This document shows, piece by piece, positions 2,628 through 17,713 of a stretch of DNA of 64,000 bases; the stretch's first letter is position 1; each line of letters opens with the position of its first letter. The DNA comes from an uncultured Ignavibacteria bacterium. Lineage in GTDB: Bacteria > Zixibacteria > MSB-5A5 > UM-FILTER-46-8. The stretch covers positions 8,328 to 72,327 of the forward strand of contig CAZLVS010000011.1 in NCBI GenBank assembly GCA_964563085.1, in the 5' to 3' direction. The notes beneath the pieces were generated by a model, which saw nothing but the letters and a program-made list of their open reading frames with translations, made no database searches and was not told where the DNA came from. A program made the position numbers and the translations under genes.

Positions 2628-3755
2628 TTAGTCTTCGAGCAGCTCGACATTCGCTCTGGGGACAATAACCTTGCCTTCCGCCTCAAATTCGACTTCAAGA
2701 ACGCGAGCCTTCGACTCGGACTCCAATTTCTGCAGCGGCGACGGAAGGTCGCTGACCTTTCCGATTTTACCGAAGTAAGGATGGCGAATAACACGTATCG
2801 GAGAACCCACTTCCAATCCATGGCTTGCGACTTTATCCTCCTCGTGCGTGGCGTGGATGTCGCCCTCATAAGGAATTACCACCTCGGGCCTGATAACACC
2901 GGCTCTGATCTGTGTGGCTCCGTTGATGCAAGCCAGTTGGCCCTCCTTAGATTTCAGCAGGCTGTATGTGTGTTCCGCCATAGCTATCTCTCCGAATCCC
3001 TCGGTAACGACCAGAGTAATACCCTTGTCTTCGTTTCCGGTAATGGCGACACCCAGATCGTGTCCAAGAAAATCCCTGAGGTCTTTATCGTTGAATCCGC
3101 CGACTACGATACCTCGCACCCCTACGGTTATCGCTTTCTTCAAGGCTGATGCGGTAACCAGGGAGCCGCCGACAATAATTTTCTCCTTTAGCTCCGGAGT
3201 AATATCCTTCTCATCAAGAATGGTATCGGGATTAGGCGATACGATTTTTAACTCACCATGAGTTTCACCGCCGATACCGAAAATCCCTTGGGCAAATGCT
3301 CCCCAAGTTCTGACCTCAACACCCTCCTCCGGTATGATTTTGTAAACCTCGCCTTTAATATAAGCCTTAACCTCAACCGGTACCGGCGCTCCTCTAAGTA
3401 GAACCTGACCCGTAACCGAAGAGACGTGTTCGAGATCACCTTCAATTTTGGCTTTGCAGGTTGACGTGAATAGCCCAAAAAACGACTTGGATTTTGCGAT
3501 GATCTCGCCCTGTTCCACGTGATCGCCAATCTGTTTGAGCATGCAGTCGTTAACATCCTCAGGCGGAATACCGAGAATATTAGCGACGTTCATCGGTTCC
3601 ACTGTTCCCGGAAGCTCGGTTCTGGCGACCACGGTATCCGGTTCAACCGTATCCCCTTCCTTAACGACAACCTCGCCCTTTAAGGGAAGTATTCGTTTCT
3701 TGGATATCTGAGCCTTTTCCGTTACTTTAAGACCTGGCGTATAAGCATGAGCCAT
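2628..3755 (-). CDS. Uncharacterised protein with an N-terminal lipoyl/biotinyl-like hybrid-barrel motif. It is the last gene of the three-gene operon with 4046..5893.
   Basis: 375-aa ORF. The N-terminus 'LPLKGEVVVKEGDTVEPDTVVA' resembles the hybrid-barrel N-termini of RnfC/NqrA-type proteins. The body is rich in G/V and I did not recognise a family. Its ATG is preceded by a GAGGTG RBS. Confidence 0.55.
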   Translation of the reverse strand: MAHAYTPGLKVTEKAQISKKRILPLKGEVVVKEGDTVEPDTVVARTELPGTVEPMNVANILGIPPEDVNDCMLKQIGDHVEQGEIIAKSKSFFGLFTSTCKAKIEGDLEHVSSVTGQVLLRGAPVPVEVKAYIKGEVYKIIPEEGVEVRTWGAFAQGIFGIGGETHGELKIVSPNPDTILDEKDITPELKEKIIVGGSLVTASALKKAITVGVRGIVVGGFNDKDLRDFLGHDLGVAITGNEDKGITLVVTEGFGEIAMAEHTYSLLKSKEGQLACINGATQIRAGVIRPEVVIPYEGDIHATHEEDKVASHGLEVGSPIRVIRHPYFGKIGKVSDLPSPLQKLESESKARVLEVEFEAEGKVIVPRANVELLED

Positions 3756-4045
3756 ATATTCACCTCATTATATGTAAAAACACTATTTTCTACTTGTTTT
3801 TGCCTTCTTCGATCAGGTTTTCCGCAATCCTCACAGAAATGTTCATATTGTCTGCCCTGAAGAACTTTGCTAAACCAATATTCCTCGGCTCCGGATGTAT
3901 GGACGCTGAGATTGCGAACCGATCCCCATCCACAGATTTTTTCATTCGCAAACCTATCCCATTCCACCTGTTTGAGCGAGTCAATAACAGTGGGGACGAA
4001 CTTCAGGTTATAAGTATAGAGAGTTCGGTAATCTTCTATTTCCAC
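3722..4045 (-). CDS. Small Cys-containing hypothetical protein (107 aa) with a GTG start abutting the stop of the upstream gene
   Basis: The ORF fills the 290-bp gap between the 615-aa and 375-aa genes. Its GTG lies directly after the TAA of 4046..5893. It carries a 'C..HFCEDCGK' Cys/His motif. An alternative 64-aa ORF (3790..3984) is open in another frame. Confidence 0.3.
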   Translation of the reverse strand: MEIEDYRTLYTYNLKFVPTVIDSLKQVEWDRFANEKICGWGSVRNLSVHTSGAEEYWFSKVLQGRQYEHFCEDCGKPDRRRQKQVENSVFTYNEVNIWLMLIRQVLK

Positions 4046-5893
4046 TTAAGCCAGTTCCTCGAGTAAATCCTTGTTATAAATATCCAGGGCATGCATCCAC
4101 TCCTTTAGTTTCGTTACCCGCGTCTTCTCATCCTCAGGCAACCTGAAGGGACGTCCGCGCCCATCGAGTATTATCCCAACGACTCCCCCTGAAACCTCAG
4201 TTTCGATTCTATGACCCTTCCCTTCGCCGATATCAAGAGATTTCGCCGGATCCAGAGAAGCCTTGACCTTAACGGGAAGCGATGAACTCTCGTCAATTCC
4301 AGCTTTTATGAGTTTAATCTCACCGAACGACAGCTTGCCTTCTTCCACCGATCCATCGGGAAGTTTAAATTTATAGGTTAGCACAGTACCGTCGCCCTTG
4401 AACTCACCGGTCGGCGCTATACAGGTTCCCAGATGAATCAGGCAATCTTTGTTGAACACCTCGGTTGCCGCTTGCTCGTGAATTGTGGAAAGCACCCCCA
4501 ACTGGGGCATCATAAAAATCGAATCGACCGCCAGGCGGGTAATTCCTTCCGGAAGGAATGCGTCCATCATCATCAGCGCGGATTGTTGTCTGCGCGGAGC
4601 GTGCGACAACACACCTCCCGATCCGATCAGCATATTCAGCGACATCATGTTAACTAAGGTCTGTCCGCCGACTGTTTGATCGAAGGCGTCCGCGATAGTT
4701 CTCTGTTGCTGAACTCCCTTTAACACGGTGGCGAAACTCTTATGCTGAATAAACGCCAGCCTCAGGGCTTCCCTGGCAATAGCTTGTTCAAAAACCAGTT
4801 CGCTGAGGGACTGCGGTATGGTGGTCGGTCTTATCATTTTGTTCTTAACCCGATTGCGAAGATCGCGTTCGTTCATATCAAACGGCACCCACCTCATTAC
4901 ATTCTCCAAGCCGGATTCGGCGAAGACATTGGATACGGAATAACTCATTCCCAAATTAGCGGAAACCGTCCGATTAAATATTCCCTGAAATACAGAGAAG
5001 ACGTCAGTCGTAGCGCCGCCTATATCCACACCGACAGCGTCAATTTTTTCGATATCCGCAATAGTCTTAATAATCAAACCCACTGCGCCGGGAGTCGGCA
5101 TAATCGGAGCATGCGCCCAGTCCATCAGTTTGGAGTAGCCGGGAGCCTGAGCCATCACATGTTCCATGAACAGATCGTGGATTTTCTCGCGGGCGGGCAG
5201 AAGGTTTTCCCTCTCAAGCACCGGTCGAATGTTTTCGACAATGTCCAGAGCAACCTTCGCCTCAAGCGTTTCCTTAACAGCATCGCGCGCCTTATTATTA
5301 CCAGCGTAAATCACCGGAAGGTTATAACCGGATCCAAGCCTGGGTTTGGGGTCGGCGGCGGATATCAACTCAGCGAGTTCCGCCACATGAGTGGTGGTTC
5401 CGCCATCGATACCGCCTGACAGCAGGATCATATCCGGTCGGAGATGACGTATCCTTTCGATCTGCTGATGAGGCAGACGCTTATCATTGGAGGCTATCAC
5501 GTCCATTACGATAGCGCCGGCGCCCAATGCCGCGCGTTCGGCTGATTCCGCAGTCATCGAACGCACCACCCCCGCCACCATCATCTGCAGTCCCCCTCCC
5601 GCCGATGATGTAGATATGTAGATATCCGCACCGGTCTTATCTTTTGCCGGCGATATTATCCTGTGTTTTTCATCCAATATCTTTCTTCCCGACAATTCTT
5701 CCACCTCGGCGATAGCATTCAGCACGCCCATCGTTACATCCTCGAAAGGCGCTTCAACCGTTGTAGGCGCTTCGCCGCGAACGATCAGACGATATTCCCC
5801 GTCCCGATATTCGATTAAAATCGCCTTGGTTGTAGTGGAGCCGCAATCGGTGGCTAAAATTACTTTAATGTCTTCAGGCTTCTTTTTAGTCAT
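4046..5893 (-). CDS. MutL/GlmL-like ASKHA-fold protein: two actin-like ATPase domains, as in the glutamate mutase accessory protein and hydantoinase-A families
   Basis: N-terminal 'KVILATDCGSTTTKAILI' and central 'VGVDIGGATTDVFSV' phosphate-binding motifs (DxGxT) typical of MutL/GlmL (PF13941-like) and hydantoinase_A proteins. There is an approximately 150-aa C-terminal extension. Confidence 0.6.
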   Translation of the reverse strand: MTKKKPEDIKVILATDCGSTTTKAILIEYRDGEYRLIVRGEAPTTVEAPFEDVTMGVLNAIAEVEELSGRKILDEKHRIISPAKDKTGADIYISTSSAGGGLQMMVAGVVRSMTAESAERAALGAGAIVMDVIASNDKRLPHQQIERIRHLRPDMILLSGGIDGGTTTHVAELAELISAADPKPRLGSGYNLPVIYAGNNKARDAVKETLEAKVALDIVENIRPVLERENLLPAREKIHDLFMEHVMAQAPGYSKLMDWAHAPIMPTPGAVGLIIKTIADIEKIDAVGVDIGGATTDVFSVFQGIFNRTVSANLGMSYSVSNVFAESGLENVMRWVPFDMNERDLRNRVKNKMIRPTTIPQSLSELVFEQAIAREALRLAFIQHKSFATVLKGVQQQRTIADAFDQTVGGQTLVNMMSLNMLIGSGGVLSHAPRRQQSALMMMDAFLPEGITRLAVDSIFMMPQLGVLSTIHEQAATEVFNKDCLIHLGTCIAPTGEFKGDGTVLTYKFKLPDGSVEEGKLSFGEIKLIKAGIDESSSLPVKVKASLDPAKSLDIGEGKGHRIETEVSGGVVGIILDGRGRPFRLPEDEKTRVTKLKEWMHALDIYNKDLLEELA

Positions 5894-5932: not shown

Positions 5933-6649
5933 CTAATCAGACGAACCGCCTCTTGAATAACTGCCATTGAATCCTCTTGAAAAGACCCAATCCTTAATAC
6001 TCTTCTCTTCATCCTTCTTAGACTGTGGTTTTACCTCCGCATCGGCTTCGGAGGAATCTTGCCGCTCCTCTCCGGTACAGTTCCGATAATCATCATAGCG
6101 GTCGTTGTCTGCACTATAATCACGATGATTACTATGGGTTCTCGAACGGACTTTTTCGAATTCGTTTTTCATGTCTCTCAGGTTTATATAGTTATGTCCT
6201 ACCGCATTGCGCAATTCCAGGGCTGTCATAGTATCTACCGCAACAACAATTACTTTCCGCCCTCGACTACGAAGCAGTTCAACCGCTCTCTCAAAATCCC
6301 CGTCGCCGGAAAAGAGAATTGCGGTTTCATACAAATTAATAGTATTGAACATGTCAATTACAATTTCGATATCCAGATTAGATTTCACTACTTCCCGGTT
6401 GGCTCGTTTATCCCACATACTTTTGATCTTCTTTACTCGAACCGTGAATCCCATCCTCATCAGCGCCTTGAAGAAATCCTCCCGTTCGGAACCGAAATCA
6501 CCATCGTATCCGGTATAATAAAAAGCGTTTACTAATTCTTTCCCATTAGTAAAATACCGAAGTATTTTATTGTACTCAAAGTGCCAGCCTAACTCTCTTT
6601 GCGAATAGAACATGTTTGAACCGTCGACGAACAAAGAGACTTTTTCCAT
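5933..6649 (-). CDS. NYN-domain (LabA-like, DUF88) predicted ribonuclease with a low-complexity acidic/basic C-terminal tail
   Basis: 'LFVDGSNMFYS' and 'ILFSGDGDFERAVELLRSRGRKVIVVA' match the PIN-like NYN catalytic core. Confidence 0.75.
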   Translation of the reverse strand: MEKVSLFVDGSNMFYSQRELGWHFEYNKILRYFTNGKELVNAFYYTGYDGDFGSEREDFFKALMRMGFTVRVKKIKSMWDKRANREVVKSNLDIEIVIDMFNTINLYETAILFSGDGDFERAVELLRSRGRKVIVVAVDTMTALELRNAVGHNYINLRDMKNEFEKVRSRTHSNHRDYSADNDRYDDYRNCTGEERQDSSEADAEVKPQSKKDEEKSIKDWVFSRGFNGSYSRGGSSD

Positions 6650-6749: not shown

Positions 6750-7184
6750 TTATGCATTTTTATCCTTCTTTCGTTTAAACCTCGCCCAGAAACCTCTCTT
6801 CGCCTTTTTCCTTTCCTTCTTTAACGCCTGTTCTTTTTCGTAAGCATCGGCGTCCAGTTTTTCGATCTTCTGAATGAGAACCTCCACCGACTCGCGTTTC
6901 TCCAGCGTTTTCTGCAAAACATCATAATCCTTGAAGGAGAACATAGCATGCACAAATGGTTCGAAAAAGACCATTGCCTGCGATCCAATCCAGTTAAGCG
7001 GCTTGATCGACTCCAAAAACATTATTGCTGGCACCGCCATTTTCCATTCGATTACTTTGGCGGCGAGTCTATGGAGAGCCTGATGCTCATGTTCGGAGAT
7101 TTTATCATTGGGATCAACCGGAGGTTGTCCGTCCCGGAAGATATCACGAAGAGACATCTTCGTCGCCTCCTTCCTTCGGCTCAT
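6750..7184 (-). CDS. Hypothetical protein with a basic C-terminus
   Basis: 144-aa ORF in an operon-like array with 7144..7626 and 7586..7801. No recognised family. Confidence 0.4.
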   Translation of the reverse strand: MSRRKEATKMSLRDIFRDGQPPVDPNDKISEHEHQALHRLAAKVIEWKMAVPAIMFLESIKPLNWIGSQAMVFFEPFVHAMFSFKDYDVLQKTLEKRESVEVLIQKIEKLDADAYEKEQALKKERKKAKRGFWARFKRKKDKNA

Positions 7185-7626
7185 CCTTTGATATCATCGC
7201 CTGCACAAAGTTTATAACTTCTTCCCTATTATCTGAAAATCTCAAATAAACTCCTCTGAAGTTCTCGAGCCTCGATGGTTTAACGAAAGGAGACAGAAAG
7301 ACGCCGTTGCTATCCGGGCAGCAGCTTCGGAATCTACTCCAATTATACGTTTTGACGCCGGAGAGGCTTCTTATCTCCACACCGTCCTGATTCATAGCAT
7401 ATCTGGTGGGAATATAAAATGAAGACAAAGATCCAACCATGATTATTACTGCCACAACAGTCAGCAAGGGACTATGAGTTGTTAAATATACCGTCACGAA
7501 AATTACTAAGAGAAAGATGCTGACAATCAGAGTCCGCTTCCAGCTTACGGCAGCGGGATGATTCACCCATTCAACGGCATTGTCGTTAGAATTCCGATTG
7601 GTCTCGATATCGTTCTTTCCGGACAT
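7144..7626 (-). CDS. Hypothetical membrane protein: two TM helices plus a possible bacterial PH-like domain
   Basis: Hydrophobic segments 'LIVSIFLLVIFVTVYL' and 'LLTVVAVIIMVGSL' followed by a soluble domain. Confidence 0.5.
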   Translation of the reverse strand: MSGKNDIETNRNSNDNAVEWVNHPAAVSWKRTLIVSIFLLVIFVTVYLTTHSPLLTVVAVIIMVGSLSSFYIPTRYAMNQDGVEIRSLSGVKTYNWSRFRSCCPDSNGVFLSPFVKPSRLENFRGVYLRFSDNREEVINFVQAMISKDEPKEGGDEDVSS

Positions 7627-7801
7627 CCTGCATCTTTTTCAAATACTCTTCGGGATCGATAATACCCTTCTCAATCAGAATCGCAACCAGCGCTTCCGTC
7701 GCCAAATTGTTGGAAAGAGACAGCTCCTCATAGCTAACCTCCTTAACCTGATCGCCGATCTTAATCTTTAATAACGCCTTTTTATCCTTGCCTTTTGCCA
7801 T
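7586..7801 (-). CDS. Small hypothetical protein (71 aa)
   Basis: Begins 17 nt after the stop of 7819..9639 and overlaps the next ORF by 41 nt. Lys/Glu-rich. Confidence 0.3.
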   Translation of the reverse strand: MAKGKDKKALLKIKIGDQVKEVSYEELSLSNNLATEALVAILIEKGIIDPEEYLKKMQDVRKERYRDQSEF

Positions 7802-7818: not shown

Positions 7819-9639
7819 TTATTCGGATAGGCGCACAACTTCATCGCCTACAATTCTACAATACATAACATCGCTATTCAAGCCGCCCCTTGCTTTGAAG
7901 GTTACATCGCCGCTGACTCCTTTGTAATCCTCGATCTTGTTCAATCCATGGGTGATATTAAAACCGCCGATCTCCCTAACCGTCGTCAATATTATCATCG
8001 CCGCATCGTAGCTTAAGCCGGCAACTCTCTTGGGGCTGATTCCATACTGCTTTCGAAACCGGGCGGAAAAGCGAGCCCATCGGGGCTCTTTGGGAAACGG
8101 ATAGAAATCCGTGGCGAAAACAGCGCCGTCGAGATAACCTTTCGCGCTTTTAAGAACCTCAGGATCGGACCATCCTTCGCTGCCCAACAGCGTGGTTTCC
8201 ATCTGCCCGAATACCACCTGAGGAGCGATCATAGCCACTTCGTCAGCAAATCCCGGAATGAAAAGGCCATCCAGCCGTACAGGCCATTCATACTTGGGCA
8301 GTAGTTCTTCCGGTTGTTTAGGATTGATATACAAGGATGAATCCGCCAATCCTTCCTCCAGCAGCTGCTCGATATCCTCGGTCAGAACTTCTTTGATCTC
8401 TGTCAACGGTCTTCTAAAATCAGTCATACCCCGCTGATAGAAAGCGATTTTGATCACCTCCCCATTCAGCCGTTTCACTTCCTGCACAAACGCGGCAGAT
8501 ACATCTTCCCCATACGCATCATTGGGGGTGATGATGCCAAACTGTTCAAGACCGAGTTTCCTGATTGCATAACTTGCTATTTGCTTGCCTATATATTCCG
8601 AATCGGGGCTTAGTTGAAATATACTCCTTCCTACCGCCGCAATGCCTTTTCCCGAGGCGGCGGGAACCACCAATGGCACATTTTCATACTGGCAAATTAT
8701 CGCTGCAGCGAAGGCGTTCTCACTCTGAAGCGGTCCGATGATAACATCAACACCCGATTGAATCAACTCCCTGGTGCCCTCAACCGTGTTTATCGATGTC
8801 CCCAGATTATCGTACACTTCCAACTCAACTTCCGTGGAGGTATCCGCAGTGTTGAAATCCTCCAGGGCCAGTTTTATTCCCCTGAGCATATTGATGCCGT
8901 ACTCAGAATATCTGCCGGACAATGGGATCAGCATTCCAATCCTGAGGAGCCCGGGATCTTCCTTGGATTTTCCGAACTCCAATTCCTGCGCTCGTAAGGC
9001 GAATTCGCTGTTGGAGTACTTCTCCTTCAATCGGGAAATCGTACTTGCGGCTTTCTCCGGTCTATTCTCCCTTATCTCTCTTTTCGCTTTGAGATAATGC
9101 ATCTCCGCCGATAGCTGATAATTATCAGCCCTGGTAGCGAGGTCGTCCAACCTCGCAAGCGATATATGGTCTTCGATAACATTCCTCAGCGAGATTCTCG
9201 CCTTGTCCTTTAAATCAGAATCATCAAGCCTATCATAAGCCTGGATGTAGTAATACGCTGCGCCGAAGGGATCATCTTGCTGAAAGCGAATATCCCCCAG
9301 CAAAAGCAATGCTCCCCCAATGTATTGCGAGTATGGAAACTCATTTATAAAATCCTCAAACTCCTTTTCCGCAAACTCGAGCATTCCCAGCTTGTGATGC
9401 GAACGCGCCTTCATAAACCAGGAAATTGAAAACCTCGGTTCCATCGGATAATCGGTCAGAAGCTCATCAAAAAGCTCCGCCGCCTGGGAATAATTTTCAT
9501 TCTCGAAGCTGTCAACCGCCTGCTGAAACAGGGCATCAGCGCTATCTTGCGACAATGCCGCTGAACCGATGAAGAGCGAACACATCGCCATCATCGAGAG
9601 AAGATTTCTCAATCTGTTAGGGGGTATATTCTTTTTCAC
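7819..9639 (-). CDS. TPR-repeat plus periplasmic-binding-protein type 1 (LivK-like) domain protein with LpoA-like architecture; predicted lipoprotein or exported
   Basis: Signal peptide 'LSMMAMCSLFIGSAALS'. N-terminal TPRs. The C-terminal half has the PBP1 fold pattern ('LRIGMLIPLSGRYSEYG', 'VDVIIGPLQSENA', 'VPLVVPAASG'). Confidence 0.7.
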   Translation of the reverse strand: MKKNIPPNRLRNLLSMMAMCSLFIGSAALSQDSADALFQQAVDSFENENYSQAAELFDELLTDYPMEPRFSISWFMKARSHHKLGMLEFAEKEFEDFINEFPYSQYIGGALLLLGDIRFQQDDPFGAAYYYIQAYDRLDDSDLKDKARISLRNVIEDHISLARLDDLATRADNYQLSAEMHYLKAKREIRENRPEKAASTISRLKEKYSNSEFALRAQELEFGKSKEDPGLLRIGMLIPLSGRYSEYGINMLRGIKLALEDFNTADTSTEVELEVYDNLGTSINTVEGTRELIQSGVDVIIGPLQSENAFAAAIICQYENVPLVVPAASGKGIAAVGRSIFQLSPDSEYIGKQIASYAIRKLGLEQFGIITPNDAYGEDVSAAFVQEVKRLNGEVIKIAFYQRGMTDFRRPLTEIKEVLTEDIEQLLEEGLADSSLYINPKQPEELLPKYEWPVRLDGLFIPGFADEVAMIAPQVVFGQMETTLLGSEGWSDPEVLKSAKGYLDGAVFATDFYPFPKEPRWARFSARFRKQYGISPKRVAGLSYDAAMIILTTVREIGGFNITHGLNKIEDYKGVSGDVTFKARGGLNSDVMYCRIVGDEVVRLSE

Positions 9640-9657
9640 CTTGTGTCTGCTCCTGGG

Positions 9658-10152
9658 TTAAAGCGAATACTTCCCGAAATCTTCCGGATTAATTCTTCTC
9701 AATCTCTCCTTCAAGGATTCTTCGTTCTTTGGCAATCCTTGTGATTCCCGTTGTTCGGGGGAAAGCGTAAGAAGATCGCTGTTAATAAAAATGGGGGCTT
9801 TCGTTTTCAAAGCCAGCGCTATCGAATCCGAAGGTCGCGCATCGACCTTAATAACCTCATCCCCGTTTTTAGCGATATGAATTTTAGCATAAAAGGTCTG
9901 CTCCTTTAGTTCGGTAATCTCGATTCTATCGACTTTACCGCCGATAGAGGAAATGACCGATGCTAAAAGATCGTGAGTTAGCGGGCGTTTCGATGGTACT
10001 CCGGAGAGTTCCATTCCGATCGCCCATGCCTCGTAATGCCCGATCCATATTGGCAGGATTTTCTGGGAATCCTCGGGGGCTAATATAACCACCGGAGAAT
10101 TCGTGGAAGCGTCCAACGCCAATCCGTTAATCTGCGCTTTTACCATTTCCAT
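9658..10152 (-). CDS. Bifunctional nuclease family protein (BFN/DUF151)
   Basis: 'NSPVVILAPEDSQKILPIWIGHYEAWAIGMEL' and 'PLTHDLL' are the hallmark of the DUF151 nuclease domain. Confidence 0.7.
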   Translation of the reverse strand: MEMVKAQINGLALDASTNSPVVILAPEDSQKILPIWIGHYEAWAIGMELSGVPSKRPLTHDLLASVISSIGGKVDRIEITELKEQTFYAKIHIAKNGDEVIKVDARPSDSIALALKTKAPIFINSDLLTLSPEQRESQGLPKNEESLKERLRRINPEDFGKYSL

Positions 10153-10166
10153 TTGTTTTCCATACC

Positions 10167-11984
10167 TTATTTTTCATTTTCGTAATAAACTCCCCAGGCG
10201 CCCGGACCTGTATGGGATGCTATTACCGGACCTATATCAAATACTAATTCGGGCTTGACTGCGAACTCGGTCTGCAATCTATCAACTAAATCGGTTATAT
10301 CCGCATTGGACATACCGACGGCGAACCGTACCCTTTTATTATCCTCGATATCCGTCTTCAGCAGCGCAATGACCGTATCAACCAGTTTCTCTTTGCCGCG
10401 CGCTTTGGCAACCGGCACTATCTCGCCATCGACAATTTTTAATATCGGTTTAAAATTAAGCAATTCGCCGATAAATCCCCTGGCTTTACCTACCCTCCCG
10501 CCTTTGACCAGGAATTCAAATGTATCTATGGTAAAATAGATGCCGCTTCTGCTTTGTATCTCCGTCAAACGATGTAGAATCTCCTCCTTGCTCTTGCCTA
10601 CCCGAGCTAATCTCGCAGCCTCAATAACCATCATCCCCATACCCAGAGATGCGGTTTTGGAATCGAATACCGATACTCTATCGGGAGACGATAGATTCTT
10701 CCTTCCCTGCAACGCGGAATTGAAGGTACCGGATAATTTGGATGAAAGGTGTATTGAAACTATATCCGTGGTGAAATTACTCTCCAGAAGCCTCTCATAC
10801 TGCTGTTTGAACTCCTCCGAAGCCGGCTGGGATGTTTTCGGGAATATATTATTACTCGAGAGTTTTTCTAAGAAGGAATCCGCGGTCAGGTCCACGCCGT
10901 CAGCATACTCCTCCATTCCGAACAGAACTTTCAGGGGAACTACCGATATATCGTACTCATCGATAACGCTGGGCGACAAATCAGCGGTGGAATCAGTCAC
11001 GATTCGCACCGTTTTGGTCGAAACCGAAGACGACTGACCATGTTTTATCATAGTAATGCTGCGATGCTGTTCAAGCATATCGTCAACCTTGCGATGTGTT
11101 ATACTGCCAAAATCGCCCACAGCCGATTCGATCGCTTTATACTCATCTGTATGTATGTGTACTTTATGAAGATAACCGTTATCGTCCGTTTCGCTGGCGG
11201 CGACGATTAAGGAATTACCCATTTCTCTTAATTTCGCCTTTAGCATATTAGCTTTATCGCTATCGCTTACTAACATAAACTCGCAGCAGAAACGTTTGTC
11301 AGGCCTGGCATGACGCATTGACACTTCGGTCGATTGCGATTCATGGGATACGCTTTTGGGTATTGTTCCGCTTTTAATGTACCCGACCACTGCTTCCAAC
11401 ATATGCACGAATCCCTGACCTCCGGCATCGACGACATTAGCATCCATTAGAGATTCCAACTTGTACTTGGTCTCCGCCAATGAATTTTTTGCCTTCTCAA
11501 GGGACGATTCCATCAGCTCCAGCAGGTCATTGGTTTTGCCGGTCCATTTCTTAAAATGCTCGCCGGTTTCCCGGAAGATCGTGAGTATTGTACCCTCTCG
11601 CGGCGATTCGATAGCCTCGTATGCCGACTTGGTTCCCTCCTGAAATGCGATAGCGAGATCATCTGCATAGACTTTCTTCCGCCCCTTCAGAGCCGCCGCG
11701 AAACCTTTCAGATACTGAGACAGTATAACCCCCGAATTGCCACGGGCGCCGCGCAGGGACGAAGATGCCATGGTATCCGCTACGTCACTGAGGTCTACCC
11801 TGTCCATCTTTTCTACGGCAGAAGCTGTTGTACGAAGAGTAACTGCCATATTCGTGCCGGTATCACCATCGGCAACCGGGAAAACATTTATAGCGTTTAA
11901 ATCTTCAGACTTAGTGGATAACCAATTGCTGCAGGCAAGCAATACATTTCTGAGTCTCTTGCCATCGCAATAAGTGAGAGCCAT
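10167..11984 (-). CDS. DAK2 (DhaL) domain plus DegV/EDD-fold domain protein, YloV/FakA-like fatty-acid kinase homolog
   Basis: N-terminus 'FPVADGDTGTNMAVT' is DhaL-like. The C-terminal half 'IVTDSTADLSPSVIDEYDISVVPLKVLFG' is DegV-like. Confidence 0.75.
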   Translation of the reverse strand: MALTYCDGKRLRNVLLACSNWLSTKSEDLNAINVFPVADGDTGTNMAVTLRTTASAVEKMDRVDLSDVADTMASSSLRGARGNSGVILSQYLKGFAAALKGRKKVYADDLAIAFQEGTKSAYEAIESPREGTILTIFRETGEHFKKWTGKTNDLLELMESSLEKAKNSLAETKYKLESLMDANVVDAGGQGFVHMLEAVVGYIKSGTIPKSVSHESQSTEVSMRHARPDKRFCCEFMLVSDSDKANMLKAKLREMGNSLIVAASETDDNGYLHKVHIHTDEYKAIESAVGDFGSITHRKVDDMLEQHRSITMIKHGQSSSVSTKTVRIVTDSTADLSPSVIDEYDISVVPLKVLFGMEEYADGVDLTADSFLEKLSSNNIFPKTSQPASEEFKQQYERLLESNFTTDIVSIHLSSKLSGTFNSALQGRKNLSSPDRVSVFDSKTASLGMGMMVIEAARLARVGKSKEEILHRLTEIQSRSGIYFTIDTFEFLVKGGRVGKARGFIGELLNFKPILKIVDGEIVPVAKARGKEKLVDTVIALLKTDIEDNKRVRFAVGMSNADITDLVDRLQTEFAVKPELVFDIGPVIASHTGPGAWGVYYENEK

Positions 11985-11989
11985 TCGGT

Positions 11990-12454
11990 TTACTCCTCCT
12001 CTTCAGCGCTCCCCTTTTTAACCACCCATACCTTGAGATTTGCGATGAGGTCCTTTTCAATCTTGATGGGGACAGTATAAACGCCGAGGGCTTTTATCGG
12101 TTCCTCAAGAAGAACGTTGTGTCTGTCGATATCGAATCCCTTTTCCTTCAGCATATCGATAATGTTGTATGTGGTAACGGATCCGAAAACACGATCCTCT
12201 TCTCCCACCAGCACTTCGGCTGTGCAGGATGTCTTCTCGATGGCATCCCTGAGTTTTTCCGCTTCCTTCTTCTTTTTATTATCCCGGATGGTTTTCTGGT
12301 GATGGATTTCATCGATTGATTTTACATTGCTCTTGGTGGCAGGGATAGCCAGGTTGCGCGGAATAAGGAAATTCCTGGCGTAACCATCCTTTACAACCAC
12401 AATCTCTCCAACTTGTCCCAGAGTGTCTATATCGTCTTTTAGAATTACTTTCAT
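11990..12454 (-). CDS. rplI: 50S ribosomal protein L9
   Basis: 'MKVILKDDIDTLGQVGEIVVVKDGYARNFLIPRNLA' is a canonical L9 N-domain. Confidence 0.92.
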   Translation of the reverse strand: MKVILKDDIDTLGQVGEIVVVKDGYARNFLIPRNLAIPATKSNVKSIDEIHHQKTIRDNKKKKEAEKLRDAIEKTSCTAEVLVGEEDRVFGSVTTYNIIDMLKEKGFDIDRHNVLLEEPIKALGVYTVPIKIEKDLIANLKVWVVKKGSAEEEE

Positions 12455-12471
12455 TAACTACTCCTAAAACT

Positions 12472-13416
12472 TTAAACGGTAGTCGCCGAACCTCGGTTTC
12501 GGAAATTGAACCAACAATCAAAAAGCCCGACGCCAGCGAGTACAACTAACGAAAAAAGCTGCGCGAATAATATTCCTATGTAAAAAAGTATCTTAAAAAA
12601 TACGGGCATTTTTGCTTTCATAAAGAAATTTTCAACCACAGCCAATCCGACTACGAAATAAATTATACCGGTAAAAACCAATATGTTCCATCCTACAGCC
12701 CTGGTTCCCCCCATCCCGATTACAGAGATAAGTAGCCCGGCTATGAATAACCAAACCAGATTGTAATTGGGTTTCCAGCTCGTGAAATGCGGTATGGTTG
12801 GAACCTTGTAATCCCGTCTTCTCAGGATTTTGGAAGCAATCAGATAACCGACGAACGAATTAAACAACCCCGAGAGTAATATCAATGAGGGCATAATCAT
12901 AAACATAGTCTTCCCGTATGAATGCAATGTGTCCTGCATCGATTCCGTATCATCGAGAAATCCGGGAAGCGTTGTCATCTGCGCAATACCCTCATCAATC
13001 GCCATAACCAACGCCGCCTCCAATTCCGCTCTGTTTATCAGGAAAAAGAGCATTATCACCAATGCTGGCAGGAAACCTAATATGATAGCCTCCTCCGTGG
13101 TTCGTCCTGATTTAATAGCCCAACCGATCGCAATACCGGGTAATGTCACCGACAACAGCAGCGAGAACATGCCGGTCAGACCGCCGACAATCGAAGCGAC
13201 TATCAGCGTACCCGCAGCCAATACGATGGCCAGGTTTTTGCGTTCGGTAACGAATAAATAAGAGTAACAGGCAACTCCGAGTAAACCTAAGATGTAATTC
13301 ACTACGGGGATGCCGACCAATGCGGAGTTGACCGCTATTATCGCCGCCGCGTAGGAAGTGAGTTCCGGCTTTACCTGATGCCTGTTTACTCCGGCTTCCG
13401 TCGGTATTGAATTCAT
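12472..13416 (-). CDS. Polytopic membrane protein, YybS/DUF2232-like
   Basis: About 8 TM helices. It sits between rpsR and rplI, where yybS sits in Firmicutes. Confidence 0.55.
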   Translation of the reverse strand: MNSIPTEAGVNRHQVKPELTSYAAAIIAVNSALVGIPVVNYILGLLGVACYSYLFVTERKNLAIVLAAGTLIVASIVGGLTGMFSLLLSVTLPGIAIGWAIKSGRTTEEAIILGFLPALVIMLFFLINRAELEAALVMAIDEGIAQMTTLPGFLDDTESMQDTLHSYGKTMFMIMPSLILLSGLFNSFVGYLIASKILRRRDYKVPTIPHFTSWKPNYNLVWLFIAGLLISVIGMGGTRAVGWNILVFTGIIYFVVGLAVVENFFMKAKMPVFFKILFYIGILFAQLFSLVVLAGVGLFDCWFNFRNRGSATTV

Positions 13417-13419
13417 TCT

Positions 13420-13686
13420 CTAATCGAATACTTCCGGGGTATATGCAATCATCCCGAGATGTCTGGCTCGCTTGATCGCCTTTGTTAATTGCCTTTGATG
13501 CTTCGCACAATTTCCCGAGACGCGACGAGGAATTATCTTGCCGCGTTCATTCACGAATCGACGAAGCAACCTGTCTTCTTTATAATCGATAAATTCGGCT
13601 TTATTCTCACAGAATCGACAGATCTTTTTTCTCTGTCCTGTATAGCTGAGTTTGAGCCGCCTCGAATCGGTTCTTTGTATCCTCAT
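13420..13686 (-). CDS. rpsR: 30S ribosomal protein S18
   Basis: '[63 protein letters not shown]'. Confidence 0.92.
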
Positions 13687-13728
13687 TAGTCTCCTTCTTC
13701 AACTAACTCATTACATCTAATATGATAA

Positions 13729-14355
13729 CTATTCCGGCTTCTCCCCTGTTTCGTCATTTATCGAATCGGGCTCGGCTTCTTTTTTAAGATCTTCATCTTC
13801 AGAAGTTACCGCGGATGCCGTTTCCACCTCTTCGCTCTCTCTGTCAGGCTCCGCCTTTTCTTCGGTTTCCGAAGCGGAAGGAGTCACCTCCTCTGCAGGC
13901 GCATCCTCGGTTGCCGCCGCCTGCGGTTCTTCGGCGCTACCCGACGGTTCGGCTTTCGATTTTTCCTCTTCTGTCGGCGGAGAATACCCATCAGCGGATT
14001 TGCGCGAGGCAGCCCCCTTTACACTATCCTCCCTGCGCTCTCTTTCCAGCGCTCCTTCCATTCCGCCTACTTCTTCGCTAACCACGGTAAGATGACGAAG
14101 AACGTGTTCATCAAGTTGGAAATGACGATTCAGTGATCCGGGAAGCTCCCCTGTTCCTTCGAATTTAACATGGAAATAATTACCTTGATGCCGCTTTTTC
14201 AGTTCATAAGCAAAACGCTTTACGCCCCACTTTTCCACCTTTAGAATCTTGCCACCATTTTCGGTGATAATCTTCTCTAAGCTGCCGATTTCGCTATCGA
14301 TTAAGGCGGTGTCGACACCGATATCAAGAACAAACGTAGTTTCGTACTTTTTCAA
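13729..14355 (-). CDS. rpsF: 30S ribosomal protein S6 with a long (approximately 100 aa) acidic E/S/A/P-rich C-terminal tail
   Basis: N-terminal 100 aa 'MKKYETTFVLDIGVD...GNYFHVKFEGTG' is S6. The remainder is low-complexity acidic sequence. GGAGGTG RBS. Confidence 0.85.
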   Translation of the reverse strand: MKKYETTFVLDIGVDTALIDSEIGSLEKIITENGGKILKVEKWGVKRFAYELKKRHQGNYFHVKFEGTGELPGSLNRHFQLDEHVLRHLTVVSEEVGGMEGALERERREDSVKGAASRKSADGYSPPTEEEKSKAEPSGSAEEPQAAATEDAPAEEVTPSASETEEKAEPDRESEEVETASAVTSEDEDLKKEAEPDSINDETGEKPE

Positions 14356-14421
14356 CTTTCACCTCCTTTCGGTCTGTACGGCCTGCCATAACTCGCAGGC
14401 AAGGAGTAATTACTAACTATA

Positions 14422-15042
14422 TTAACTATTTATTATTTCGTCTTTTTTTGCGACGTTATAAGTACCTATCGCAGTATCAATTCCTCTATAGACTATTGAA
14501 TCAAGCAGTTCCACAGCTTTATCCAGCGATTTATTCAGTAATTCCGTCTCCCCTTCTCGAAAATCCTGTAATACAAAATCCTCCAGAAGGATACCCTCAT
14601 CGCTTGGACCAATCCCAATCCTGACCCGAGGAAAATTCTTACTTTCAATCTCTTCGAGCACCGACCCCAATCCTCGATGGCCGCCATCAGAACCGCTCTT
14701 TCGCACCCTGATCTTTCCCAAAGGTAAGTAAACGTCATCTGAAACGAGAAGTATCTCCTCTGGCAAAAGACTGCATTTTTTCTTAATTCGAGCTACAGCT
14801 AATCCGCTGTTATTCATAAAATTGAGCGGTTTTAGCAGCCTAATTTTCCTGCCCTTTAGCGAAATCTCGGCTAACTCGTAATCAGGATTAACCTGCTCTA
14901 TCTCAACGCCATGCTTGGCGGCAAATTTGTCGACAGCCATAAATCCGGCATTATGCCGGGTGAAACTGTATTTGTGTCCGGGATTACCTAATCCGGCAAC
15001 TAATTTTATATCCGGTTGTAAAAGAGCGTCATTCATATTCAT
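14422..15042 (-). CDS. pth: Peptidyl-tRNA hydrolase
   Basis: 'LVAGLGNPGHKYSFTRHNAGFMAVD'. Confidence 0.9.
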   Translation of the reverse strand: MNMNDALLQPDIKLVAGLGNPGHKYSFTRHNAGFMAVDKFAAKHGVEIEQVNPDYELAEISLKGRKIRLLKPLNFMNNSGLAVARIKKKCSLLPEEILLVSDDVYLPLGKIRVRKSGSDGGHRGLGSVLEEIESKNFPRVRIGIGPSDEGILLEDFVLQDFREGETELLNKSLDKAVELLDSIVYRGIDTAIGTYNVAKKDEIINS

Positions 15043-15289
15043 TCTACGATAAACTCTTATTATAGTTTTTGTAATGCAAAAGTCAAGTTAAATATGGATT
15101 GAAAATTATTTCGCAATACTGTGATTTGCATCTACATTTTTAAGTTATTTCCAATCATATTCGTAATCCGGCATATTGTTGTCATTAAAGAGATGATTTC
15201 TACCTTTGATAATATCACGGCGAGGAGGCGTGTTAAACCGAATCCTACGCAAATCTTTGGCGTAAGTCGGATTCTCCCGATAAATCGGG

Positions 15290-15410
15290 GAGCGAGAAAC
15301 CCGACATAGTGGTATTTTATGCGGCGTCAAACGTCCACTCCATAGGCCTGTGGACTCGTTTGAAGCCTTCGGACAGACGAGAACGTCTGACCGCGCCCAA
15401 GACCGCTGTC
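15290..15410 (+). repeat. Copy A of an approximately 100-150 nt tandem-hairpin intergenic element (core hairpins 15323..15393)
   Basis: It shares 'gagcgaGaaac..gacatagYggtatttt.tgcggcgtcaaacg...cgtttgaHgcc-ttcgg-acagac...gtctgaccgc' with the copies at 17885 and 57000. Hairpin 1 is ggcgtcaaacg/cgtttgaagcc with an inserted tccac/gtgga sub-stem. Hairpin 2 is cggacagac/gtctgaccg. Confidence 0.5.
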
Positions 15411-15658
15411 CTCCGTTTAATCGGGGACGGCAAGCGGATTGCTCCGCCGTTCAGCGCTCCAGCGCTGACGTAAGAAAATATATGGTTGGCGAACGTCCCC
15501 GCCAAAGGCGGGCAAGCTCGTTCATCAGCTTAAATCATAAACAAGGCATACGGGGACGTATGCCTTGCAAGATATTGTCACGACATGCATATCCCCGCTC
15601 TTAGCGGGACTAAACATGCCACTTTTACTTCTAACAACTAAAAACTAATAGCTAACAA

Positions 15659-17713
15659 TTATTTCAGAAGCGTCATACGCTTTCTGTACACCTGGTCGTT
15701 GACCGTAAGTTTATACAAATATATACCAGATGCATACTCGGAAGCATCCCAGTTGACCGAATGATATCCGGCGTTCTGCTTGGTGTCGATCAGGGTTTCC
15801 ACTTTCTGGCCTAATAGATTGTAAACATCCAAACTGACCTCAGAACTGGCTGTTAACGAATACGCTATCTCGGTGCTGGCGTTAAAGGGATTCGGATAAT
15901 TCTGCTGCAATGATACTTTGTAAGGAATCGCTCCATCTTCATCCACACTCGCCGCTCCTACGTACATATTAACCGGAATATATACATGCTTTGCATACGG
16001 ATCGTTGCAGTACACTTCGAGCATACCGCGATAGATTCCCGCGGGATGATCTCCGGCATCACACGTTACGCTCACATCCAGAAATCCTCCGAGCGGCACA
16101 ACTCCATCATCGATATCCGTTGATAGCCAATCGAATTCCCCGGGAGGGGTACCCAAAATAAATTTCACTGCCTTGCCGTCAGTAGTGAATGGCTCATGAT
16201 AAGCGACCTCGAGCCCGACCGTCCCGGCGGCATTTTCCATCCCCGTGGAAGCCAGGTCAAGAGGACCATTGGGATCCATAGATTCGTACTGAAGAACAAC
16301 CGTATTGGGTTTAACCAAAACGATCTGGAATGTATATTTGCCATCATGCAATCCATCCGGAATATCCACCCAGGAAATAACAGCCGAATCGGAATTATTG
16401 GTATAGAAATAGATATTCGCATTGGAGTCGGGATTCGGAACGAGGTTCGCCCAGAATGGCGCTATGATATTGTTGGGGTCAGCATCGTTCGGGAAGCGGC
16501 GCGCATAGCTGGAGGAGGAGGTGCTATCGGTAAAAGAAGCCCATCCATTCGAACATACGCAAATACTGTTATAGCTATTTCCATAATAATTGAAATCGAA
16601 ACCCAGCGGAAGATGACCGGAATTACCATAAGAGGGGTTCCCCGAAAACTCTATAATCTGCCCTTCCTGGGTGATATCGACCCAGTCATAAACAGGACCC
16701 CCGGTAGTGTCAGAATGCAGCCAATAATATCCGAATGAATCAACAATCGATGATGGCTCTAAATCGATAGCGAAATAGAGGGCGCGATCGCCGGTGTTGC
16801 CCAGCTGCAGAATATCGGTAGATTGTCCGCCTTCTTCAACATTAACCTCAATATTCTCCAGACTGTAAGTCAGAACCGGATAATTGCTGTTGTAAATCGG
16901 TCTCTGGGTAAACCGCCCCATTCCGCAGGAATAATAGGGTATGTAGAAGTAGCCAGAGTCCCCCCAACTCGCTCCCCAGCTATTTTTGCATATCCAGGCG
17001 CCATCGCCATCGCACATATTATCATCCCAGCCAACGATCACGATTGCATGGTTGGACGGTTCACTACCCGGGCCGTCATAGCAATCCCAATGAAAACCAT
17101 CGAAAACCGTAAATGTCGACGAAACAGGGCCATTAATCAATGAATTTTTGATAGATTCCACGTTGTTGGGAATACTCTCTGCATCGTCAAGGAAAACCAT
17201 GGTGACGCAACTGTCCTGGCCGCAATTCATATCTTGAGCTCTGTACGGATAACATTCTTCTTCAACCGCGCCGGTGTTGAAGAAAAGATTATAAGCATAA
17301 TGAGCCGAACCGCCATTGCAGCTTCCGCCGTATAAGTTACAGTCCACCACCTGCTGTTCGGATAAATCCCATTCCACCGAATCGGCAATGATAATCGCTG
17401 ATTCAAACGCCCCTACACCGGCAAACGCCCAGCAGGATCCGCAATCTCCCTGGTTTTTCACGGGAGTAACGCCGCCGTTTTCGCGCCAATCCCAACGTTC
17501 ATCGTCCAGCAGCAATGGCGGAGGTGGCTGCTTATCTAATTCCTGGAAAAGTTTAATTTCCTCTTCTGAAGGTTCAAAACCAAGGGCGCCGATTCTGTTC
17601 TTCGGATCCTGATTATCTCCCTCAGCCGCATTAAGATAGGTTACGGCGAAGAACAGCTGCAGCAAAAATGCAGCCCTCACTCCCAGAGTTACGCTTACCG
17701 CCAATTTTCTCAT
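15659..17713 (-). CDS. Secreted papain-family (C1) cysteine peptidase with a T9SS type-A C-terminal sorting domain
   Basis: Signal peptide. Active-site 'QGDCGSCWAFAGVGAFE'. C-terminal 'NYPNPFNASTEIAYSL...GIYLYKLTVNDQVYRKRMTLLK' is a Por/T9SS CTD. Confidence 0.8.
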   Translation of the reverse strand: MRKLAVSVTLGVRAAFLLQLFFAVTYLNAAEGDNQDPKNRIGALGFEPSEEEIKLFQELDKQPPPPLLLDDERWDWRENGGVTPVKNQGDCGSCWAFAGVGAFESAIIIADSVEWDLSEQQVVDCNLYGGSCNGGSAHYAYNLFFNTGAVEEECYPYRAQDMNCGQDSCVTMVFLDDAESIPNNVESIKNSLINGPVSSTFTVFDGFHWDCYDGPGSEPSNHAIVIVGWDDNMCDGDGAWICKNSWGASWGDSGYFYIPYYSCGMGRFTQRPIYNSNYPVLTYSLENIEVNVEEGGQSTDILQLGNTGDRALYFAIDLEPSSIVDSFGYYWLHSDTTGGPVYDWVDITQEGQIIEFSGNPSYGNSGHLPLGFDFNYYGNSYNSICVCSNGWASFTDSTSSSSYARRFPNDADPNNIIAPFWANLVPNPDSNANIYFYTNNSDSAVISWVDIPDGLHDGKYTFQIVLVKPNTVVLQYESMDPNGPLDLASTGMENAAGTVGLEVAYHEPFTTDGKAVKFILGTPPGEFDWLSTDIDDGVVPLGGFLDVSVTCDAGDHPAGIYRGMLEVYCNDPYAKHVYIPVNMYVGAASVDEDGAIPYKVSLQQNYPNPFNASTEIAYSLTASSEVSLDVYNLLGQKVETLIDTKQNAGYHSVNWDASEYASGIYLYKLTVNDQVYRKRMTLLK

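Follow-up and report, generated by a model that had tools for sequence, protein, structure and literature searches.

The 64,000-nucleotide (nt) stretch of DNA analysed here, which we refer to as the window, comes from an uncultured bacterium of the Zixibacteria lineage (contig CAZLVS010000011.1, positions 8,328 to 72,327) and encodes a 615-amino-acid (aa) ATPase-like protein of the Pfam MutL family, MutL-long, and a 375-aa protein, p375. MutL-long and p375 are a genuine, strongly conserved pair that recurs across many phyla, and we estimate at roughly 55% the probability that they constitute the cytoplasmic ATPase core of a module that is membrane-associated and so far uncharacterised. Support is good for the complex and the module, and the function is inferred. 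We favor this reading because p375 is an obligatory partner of MutL-long, the ATPase motifs are intact, conservation is very strong, and a link to five proteins with membrane or hydrophobic segments persists across genomes. A first-pass annotation made from the letters alone had described a three-gene operon in which a small Cys/His protein, encoded by a 107-aa open reading frame (ORF), works together with MutL-long and p375. All three ORFs are present on the minus strand. We did not find that they belong to unrelated characterised families and lie side by side in an unconserved order, so the core of that proposal, that the pair works together in a function not yet known, stands.

The pairing was assessed from both sides. 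A search seeded with p375 yielded 80 species-level loci, 72 of them evaluable for MutL adjacency, and a search seeded with MutL-long in a separate metagenome collection yielded another 80 loci, 59 of them evaluable for p375 adjacency. A MutL gene lies directly upstream of p375 and on the same strand in 54/72 species loci, which cover many phyla, and p375 lies directly downstream of MutL in 55/59 metagenome loci, where most gaps measure -1 to ~150 nt (mostly -6 to about 150 nt for relatives overall). The adjacency extends to p375 relatives at 32-37% identity, and in many of these the stop codon of one gene overlaps the start codon of the next. The two proteins also occur fused: MutL::p375 proteins of 989-1022 aa, from Marinimicrobia, Planctomycetota, and Ozemobacteraceae, fall into at least 43 clusters at 90% identity, each found on several contigs. 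For one such fusion, AlphaFold2 gave a model with a predicted template-modelling score (pTM) of 0.75. Two loci, L131 (2496-9979) and L155 (2662-9959), each carry two tandem pairs in the order h160-MutL-p375-h144-MutL-p375, where h160 and h144 are small genes described below. In both, the first p375 copy is longer, at about 445 aa, and resembles a 450-aa form (P0265) with an extra N-terminal hybrid-barrel domain. Relative to the closest locus, L003, the ratio of nonsynonymous to synonymous substitution rates (dN/dS) is about 0.04 for both genes, indicating strong purifying selection. Adjacency, fusion, and joint duplication thus uphold the suggestion of a working partnership for MutL-long and p375, but not for the 107-aa ORF. 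The tight packing that had been cited in its support is likewise a property of the pair in its relatives and not of the window, where the two genes stand 290 nt apart because the remnant of an unrelated DinB-family gene lies between them.

By sequence, the 615-aa protein belongs to the MutL family as a divergent, long form: it matches PF13941 along the full profile (positions 1-450/450, residues 12-484) with 431.5 bits and E=4.8e-129 against a gathering score of 27 bits, bearing out its first-pass description as MutL/GlmL-like. It reaches the cut-off of none of the related models: the GlmL equivalog NF040745 (232.5 bits vs 475), Or-4 of the GlmL-related ornithine degradation family (NF040744; 223.1 vs 600), the NCBIfam model glmL_fam (167 vs 204), and Hydantoinase_A (PF01968; 22.2 bits over 40 residues vs 22.9). 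The two DxGxT-type motifs read on the first pass are both there, as D16-C-G-S-T and D290-I-G-G-A-T, and in 13 long-form sequences the phosphate-1, phosphate-2, and adenosine motifs (D16xGSTTTK, D290IGGATTD, and S425GGVxSHAP) are invariant, as are DxGSTTTKA and TSSAGGGLQM. With these actin-like (ASKHA) motifs intact and unvarying, the ATPase looks competent. The ATPase core (~12-484) is followed by a beta-rich C-terminal extension of ~130 residues (~485-615) that lies outside the 450-position Pfam model and is kept in all long-form relatives, including its GxGxG...LDxR motif. Relatives across phyla are 46-80% identical to the window protein, and Zixibacteria and Planctomycetota sequences are 62-65% identical to each other, a degree of conservation comparable to that usual for core cellular machinery. 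Sequence searches of the PDB, including one with a MutL-long profile, found no relative.

p375 is similarly widespread. One search returned >8000 homologues (2539 representatives at 50% identity), a species-level genome collection contains at least 572 pattern-matched stretches that encode a relative, and identity across phyla is 53-59%. The protein has no match at threshold to any Pfam or NCBIfam family, and its profile found no relative in a PDB sequence search; apart from its N-terminus it had been said to match nothing, and no family was found for it. An AlphaFold2 model (mean predicted local distance difference test score 82) lays out a beta-rich hybrid-barrel region (~10-175) with two hybrid-motif hairpins, an alpha/beta region (~180-300), and a KOW/SH3-like region (~315-375). 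Its fold matches in the PDB are to single domains only (Spt5 KOW, Thermotoga maritima NusG domain 2, and PA-like domains), the C-terminal ~60 residues folding like Spt5 KOW5 with a target template-modelling (TM) score of 0.82. When 47 diverse members were scanned against Pfam, weak matches appeared to RnfC_N (36/47), Biotin_lipoyl (32/47), NQRA_N (17/47), and KOW (14/47), and the middle domain had no match, even a weak one; one relative also weakly matches TIGR01945 rnfC. The hybrid barrel proposed for the N-terminus is therefore borne out as a fold at the level of the family, whereas the window protein itself, at 13.4 bits for RnfC_N and 11.4 bits for Biotin_lipoyl (PF00364, gathering score 22.1), stays below threshold. 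The barrel hairpin reads ...DTVVARTELPG..., and since its tip has no lysine to modify, the N-terminus shares the lipoyl/biotinyl fold type and is not a carrier. The family conserves Gly-rich loop motifs (QGIFGxGGE, TEGFG, and NGATQIRAGxxRPE) and the invariant polar residues R21, Q156, E252, T281, Q282, R284, R289, N369, and E371.

Two other identities for p375 were considered and rejected. Similarity to membrane-fusion proteins amounted to faint BSH_YknX and BSH_RND matches, and hhalign against MacA found nothing. A NusG-like transcription factor was likewise discarded, as p375 has a KOW-like barrel only, and neither Pfam nor the PDB fold search gave an NGN match; the label 'NusG' that JGI attaches to some p375 relatives is a domain-level artefact.

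To define the genes that travel with the pair, neighbouring ORFs were clustered and profile hidden Markov models (HMMs) were built from the clusters. Six neighbours recur: h160, h144, a DUF6754 protein (PF20539), m215, m289, and m216. The DUF6754 protein has predicted hydrophobic segments at its N- and C-termini flanking a conserved ~250-aa domain, with an FN3 N-terminus in some lineages; m215 and m216 are predicted multi-pass membrane proteins of about 215-340 aa that are unrelated to each other by hhalign; and m289 has one hydrophobic segment at each end with a conserved domain between. h144 is a small protein whose hydrophobic core, VPAIxFLESxKPLNxIGSQ, is conserved; its gene lies directly upstream of MutL in many phyla and is present in 53/80 metagenome loci, and its profile HMM also recognises it at the head of distantly related 7-gene operons (E=3e-8 and 1.5e-14). 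h160 combines a hydrophobic N-terminal segment, the one segment that passes a 19-residue hydropathy scan (residues 32-50), with a conserved C-terminal domain bearing the motif GVLLSPFxKPSRLExFRG. PDB sequence searches with the DUF6754, m289, and h160 profiles found no relatives except for the FN3 N-terminus of some DUF6754 proteins. The pair thus does not belong to a three-gene unit as first drawn; its conserved partners are instead h144 and h160, inside the window, and DUF6754, m215, m289, and m216, outside it.

These genes appear in four arrangements: h160-h144-MutL-p375-DUF6754-m215-m289-m216; MutL-p375-h144-DUF6754-m215-m289-m216; h144-DUF6754-m215-m289-m216-MutL-p375; and a membrane set facing away from MutL-sp265-p375, sp265 being an additional gene described below. 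The order h160-h144-MutL is kept in Zixibacteria, Eisenbacteria, Fermentibacteria, Coatesbacteria, and a planctomycete, and of the 44 metagenome loci with a flank of 6 kb or more on one side, 26 contain DUF6754. An association that persists through rearrangements of this kind points to a functional link. In five loci from Zixibacteria and relatives (L006 at 9100-17100, L008, L017, L106, and L109) the set DUF6754-m215-m289-m216 is present in two to three tandem copies beside a single MutL-p375 pair, which suggests paralogous membrane units sharing one cytoplasmic module. A known anti-phage defence system was ruled out, as PADLOC returned no match for MutL, p375, h144, h160, or DUF6754 and detected only an NYN-domain gene inserted in the window.

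Most likely, MutL-long and p375 form an obligate cytoplasmic complex whose subunits would touch physically, and this complex probably serves as the core that binds and hydrolyses ATP within a widely conserved module with h144, h160, DUF6754, m215, m216, and m289. ATP binding and hydrolysis in the ASKHA cleft would drive conformational work on p375, and this work may pass via p375 and the DUF6754 domain to the membrane subunits, energy presumably flowing in that direction through the coupling. Such a scheme could be likened to a cytoplasmic ATPase powering transport or mechanical signalling across a membrane, and it is a transport or mechanical role of this kind that we infer for the pair. The occurrence of one pair with several tandem membrane sets in some genomes would suit a shared energising unit.

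Several observations weigh against a membrane-associated core. The window itself, over its 64 kb, lacks DUF6754, m215, m289, and m216, and one locus with the pair (L083, whose gene neighbourhood we take to resemble that of Firmicutes) has no DUF6754 set nearby. In 18/72 species loci, mainly Poribacteria with some WOR-3 and Stahlbacteria, p375 occurs without MutL within about 8 kb, and 4/59 metagenome MutL loci have no p375 downstream. Membrane topology was predicted from a hydropathy scan only. In fold, the ATPase comes closest to subunits of soluble HyuA-type enzymes and not to the ATPases of transporters. Finally, there is no experiment or solved structure for any member, and the literature searched held no paper on any component.

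The fold matches bring in the main rival reading, a soluble HyuA/HyuB-style enzyme in which MutL-long phosphorylates a small substrate and p375 carries out a second chemical step, the membrane-protein genes only supplying or removing substrate or being mere neighbours. The best PDB matches of the fusion model are subunits of acetophenone and acetone carboxylase, N-methylhydantoinase, and caprolactamase (5l9w_B, 9h03_A, 5svc_B, 5m45_B, and 6yra_A; E 1e-9 to 3e-6), followed by PilM, DnaK, FtsA, and sugar kinases. In all of these proteins the ASKHA cleft binds ATP and either phosphorylates a substrate or drives the conformational cycle of a partner. An enzyme of this kind would also accommodate the near-threshold Hydantoinase_A score and the invariant polar residues in the Gly-rich loops of p375, which resemble an active or binding site. 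However, TM-scores to the HyuA subunits are low (0.26-0.30 of target), p375 has no detectable similarity to HyuB and matches only hybrid-barrel and KOW domains, and the link to five membrane or small hydrophobic proteins through four gene orders goes beyond what casual neighbours would show. We consider a soluble enzyme unlikely.

PilM and FtsA are among the better per-target fold matches (TM 0.40-0.45 of target), and MutL-long could by analogy be a scaffold in which nucleotide serves mainly as a structural switch, MutL-long anchoring the cytoplasmic tails of h144 and h160 with p375 as adaptor. The position of the small h160 and h144 genes directly upstream recalls PilM-PilN-PilO, and an AYTPGL motif at the p375 N-terminus is highly conserved and retained even within fusions. 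But the similarity is that of the generic ASKHA fold, sequence places the 615-aa protein in the MutL family with only weak hydantoinase matches besides, and its catalytic-type phosphate motifs are all invariant, so that a purely structural scaffold seems to us distinctly improbable compared with the membrane-associated ATPase core.

The family name itself suggests a third role, that of a GlmL-type chaperone or reactivase for a B12-dependent mutase. The 615-aa protein does belong to Pfam MutL, has weak similarity to the GlmL and Or-4 models, and has relatives that public annotation labels 'glutamate mutase L' or 'methylaspartate mutase'; we know of no demonstrated biochemical activity for GlmL itself or for the MutL Pfam family. 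Yet both equivalog cut-offs are far from reached, the protein carries an extra C-terminal domain, and its conserved partners are p375 and membrane proteins, not the glutamate mutase S (B12-binding) and E subunits beside whose genes a GlmL gene lies. A single-sequence phmmer search, of moderate sensitivity, found nothing resembling methylmalonyl-CoA mutase (Escherichia coli ScpA) or the B12-binding domain of that protein among the 12,048 ORFs in 1.98 Mb (the window plus about 170 related loci), and the annotated neighbourhoods of the pair contain no mutase Pfam family. The first-pass remark that no mutase is nearby is therefore confirmed and extended to these loci, and its framing of the pair in terms of B12 mutases or carboxylases finds no support in context. 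Absent mutase ORFs and scores below cut-off led us to rule out a reactivase, which we regard as very improbable.

The third member of the proposed operon is a truncated remnant of a DinB-family gene without a part in the system. Among the 80 species-level loci its only homologue is in L003 (residues 1-72, 79% identity), where the gene is intact, 156 aa long, and of the DinB family (PF05163 E=6.6e-16). DNA alignment places the window ~590 nt short of L003; the remaining ~70 homologous residues fall well below a full DinB four-helix bundle of ~150-165 aa and match no Pfam or NCBIfam model, and the tail of the ORF is junction sequence that runs into the p375 ribosome-binding site (GAGGTG, a good one, ahead of an ATG) and overlaps the p375 start by 34 nt. 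The C..HxCxxC motif was created by this ~590-nt deletion, its H..CxxC part sitting in sequence past the junction. The remnant has a dN/dS of 0.15, against 0.04 for the flanking genes, and neither its frame nor the alternative 64-aa frame raised on the first pass is conserved; of the supposed trio, only MutL and p375 keep their neighbourhood, the middle ORF being absent beyond L003. A second contig of the same population (L093) has a 51-aa gene call in the gap, although its DNA there hardly differs from that of the window. The 290-nt gap was also considered as the site of an RNA element, an idea rejected because Rfam gave no match there. The stretch of ~420 nt that separates the DinB gene from p375 in L003 (7580-8000) translates in part to fragments that, to our eye, resemble a nucleotidyltransferase (...GDVNEFLDLDLIIIK...) and may be a second decayed gene that is completely gone from the window.

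In other genomes the slot between MutL and p375 is empty or filled by unrelated genes: a GT2 glycosyltransferase in L004, L005, and L009, a Cthe_2314-like HEPN protein in L013, an HD-domain protein plus another gene in L019, and, in about 15 loci, sp265, a conserved ~260-aa protein with no family match whose hydrophobic end segments we take for a signal peptide and, at the C-terminus, a membrane anchor. The differing contents mark the slot as an insertion hotspot. That the 107-aa ORF is a functional metal-binding partner in a true three-gene operon is barely credible: the frame is intact, its GTG start directly follows the TAA stop of the MutL gene, and other contigs of the population carry it unchanged, but it has neither a family match nor a homologue outside L003, its Cys/His cluster lies past a deletion junction, and GT2, HEPN, HD-domain, and secreted membrane-anchored proteins occupy its place elsewhere.

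In the window, the pair closes a co-directional minus-strand string of genes that runs h71, h160, h144, NYN gene, MutL, 107-aa ORF, p375, and terminator-like hairpin (Table 1). The hairpin probably marks the end of the transcription unit; it is a consensus match only, and such sites are no commoner in the region than in shuffled sequence. The nearest relatives of the string are Zixibacteria assemblies, with L003 proteins 93-96% identical. h71 is restricted to Zixibacteria-type loci and has weak, SHOCT-like matches. Between h144 and MutL, the NYN gene is confined to the nearest Zixibacteria loci (L003, L004, L005, and L009) and is a lineage-specific passenger outside the core; it is of the LabA-like nuclease type, and its PADLOC match is to the NYN model (E=1e-15). 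Elsewhere on the minus strand (10167-11984), the window encodes a 605-aa protein with Dak2, FakA-like_M, and DegV domains, which we read as the fatty-acid kinase subunits FakA and FakB fused in one polypeptide.

Table 1. Genes and other features around the MutL-p375 pair, numbered from the first nucleotide of the window.
Feature	Coordinates	Strand	Basis
h71, small ORF heading the string	7586..7801	-	conserved in 7 loci, upstream of h160
h160, small protein, frequent module member	7144..7626	-	gene-order conservation; no Pfam/PDB relative
h144, small protein, recurrent module member	6750..7184	-	profile HMM; no Pfam match
NYN-domain gene between h144 and MutL	5933..6649	-	PF01936 E=2.8e-29
Long-form MutL-family ASKHA ATPase, 615 aa	4046..5893	-	PF13941 E=4.8e-129
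107-aa ORF, 5' remnant of DinB-family gene	3722..4045	-	homologue only in L003
p375, 375 aa, conserved partner of MutL	2628..3755	-	no Pfam/NCBIfam match
Terminator-like hairpin directly after p375 stop codon	2586..2604	-	pattern scan

Three further neighbourhoods deserve mention. Directly upstream of h160 in L040, L043, L045, L055, and L072, which represent several phyla, lie glycine-cleavage genes: Pfam identifies GDC-P subunits, and by eye we recognise a putative gcvT and gcvH. In a planctomycete (L091, 4853-7836) the GDC-P genes are oriented away from the module. The proximity may reflect inherited gene order or hint at a functional connection. In Ignavibacteria-like and some Zixibacteria loci (L007, L015, L021, L022, L027-L029, L033, and L036), a set of genes that we take, from reading the sequences, to be TolQ/TolR/TonB-like lies immediately up- or downstream of the pair and is followed by a conserved 439-aa protein. 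In WOR-3-type loci L039 (5204-7999) and L041 (5140-7998), the usual position of MutL is taken by a TMEM260-like membrane glycosyltransferase (PF11028) of 931-952 aa that carries TPR repeats and whose gene ends 1-2 nt before the p375 start.

Among the candidate phyla recovered here, the system is widespread in Zixibacteria and their allies, Planctomycetota, Marinimicrobia, and others. None of the ~8 associated proteins has a known function, and public annotation mislabels parts of the system, with the two mutase names and with 'NusG'. If the pair does energise a membrane machine, it would represent a novel mode of coupling between ATP and the membrane, present in major, mostly uncultured environmental phyla. 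Even if that reading is wrong, an obligate pair, the lack of a B12-mutase link, and the insertion-hotspot slot are useful for annotation.

Each known system that the pair recalls shares some of its features. GlmL and Or-4 belong to the same family (PF13941) and have the two-lobe ASKHA core and the phosphate and adenosine motifs in common with the 615-aa protein, which differs in scoring below half of both equivalog cut-offs, in its ~130-aa beta-rich C-terminal domain, in its pairing with p375, and in having no adjoining B12 mutase in about 170 loci. HyuA/HyuB, known also from ATP-dependent hydantoinase and oxoprolinase, offers a similar two-component plan, an ASKHA ATPase plus a second protein, but p375 is unrelated to HyuB, and the known HyuA/HyuB enzymes are soluble and lack a conserved membrane-gene set. 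PilM-PilN-PilO and FtsA-FtsN likewise encode an ASKHA protein beside small proteins with hydrophobic segments, whereas MutL-long is of a different sequence family, has no pilus or division genes nearby, and has an additional partner in p375. With RnfC, NqrA, and membrane-fusion proteins, p375 shares sub-threshold barrel-sandwich-hybrid matches but not Fe-S or flavin domains. In RnfC and NqrA the barrel precedes Rossmann-like, SLBB, and, in RnfC, Fe-S domains, and their genes lie with those of the Rnf or Nqr membrane subunits. An Rnf/Nqr-like complex was rejected: hhalign of the p375 profile against E. coli RsxC aligned 57 columns covering one barrel hairpin (probability 26%), and m215 and m216 are unrelated to RsxE and RsxA (probability below 1%). 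NusG and Spt5 have a KOW-like C-terminus in common with p375, which lacks the NGN domain and is found in a context of ATPase and membrane-protein genes.

The assembly as a whole, judged on comparative evidence throughout, matches no described system and would be new at the system level. Tentatively, and at less than even odds, we propose that MutL-p375 is the motor of an undescribed membrane machine of ~8 proteins (h160, h144, MutL, p375, DUF6754, m215, m289, and m216), in which one motor serves several paralogous membrane units. This would be the first membrane transport or mechanical coupling powered by an ASKHA (actin/Hsp70/hydantoinase-type) ATPase, in contrast to those driven by ABC, P-type, AAA+, and rotary ATPases.

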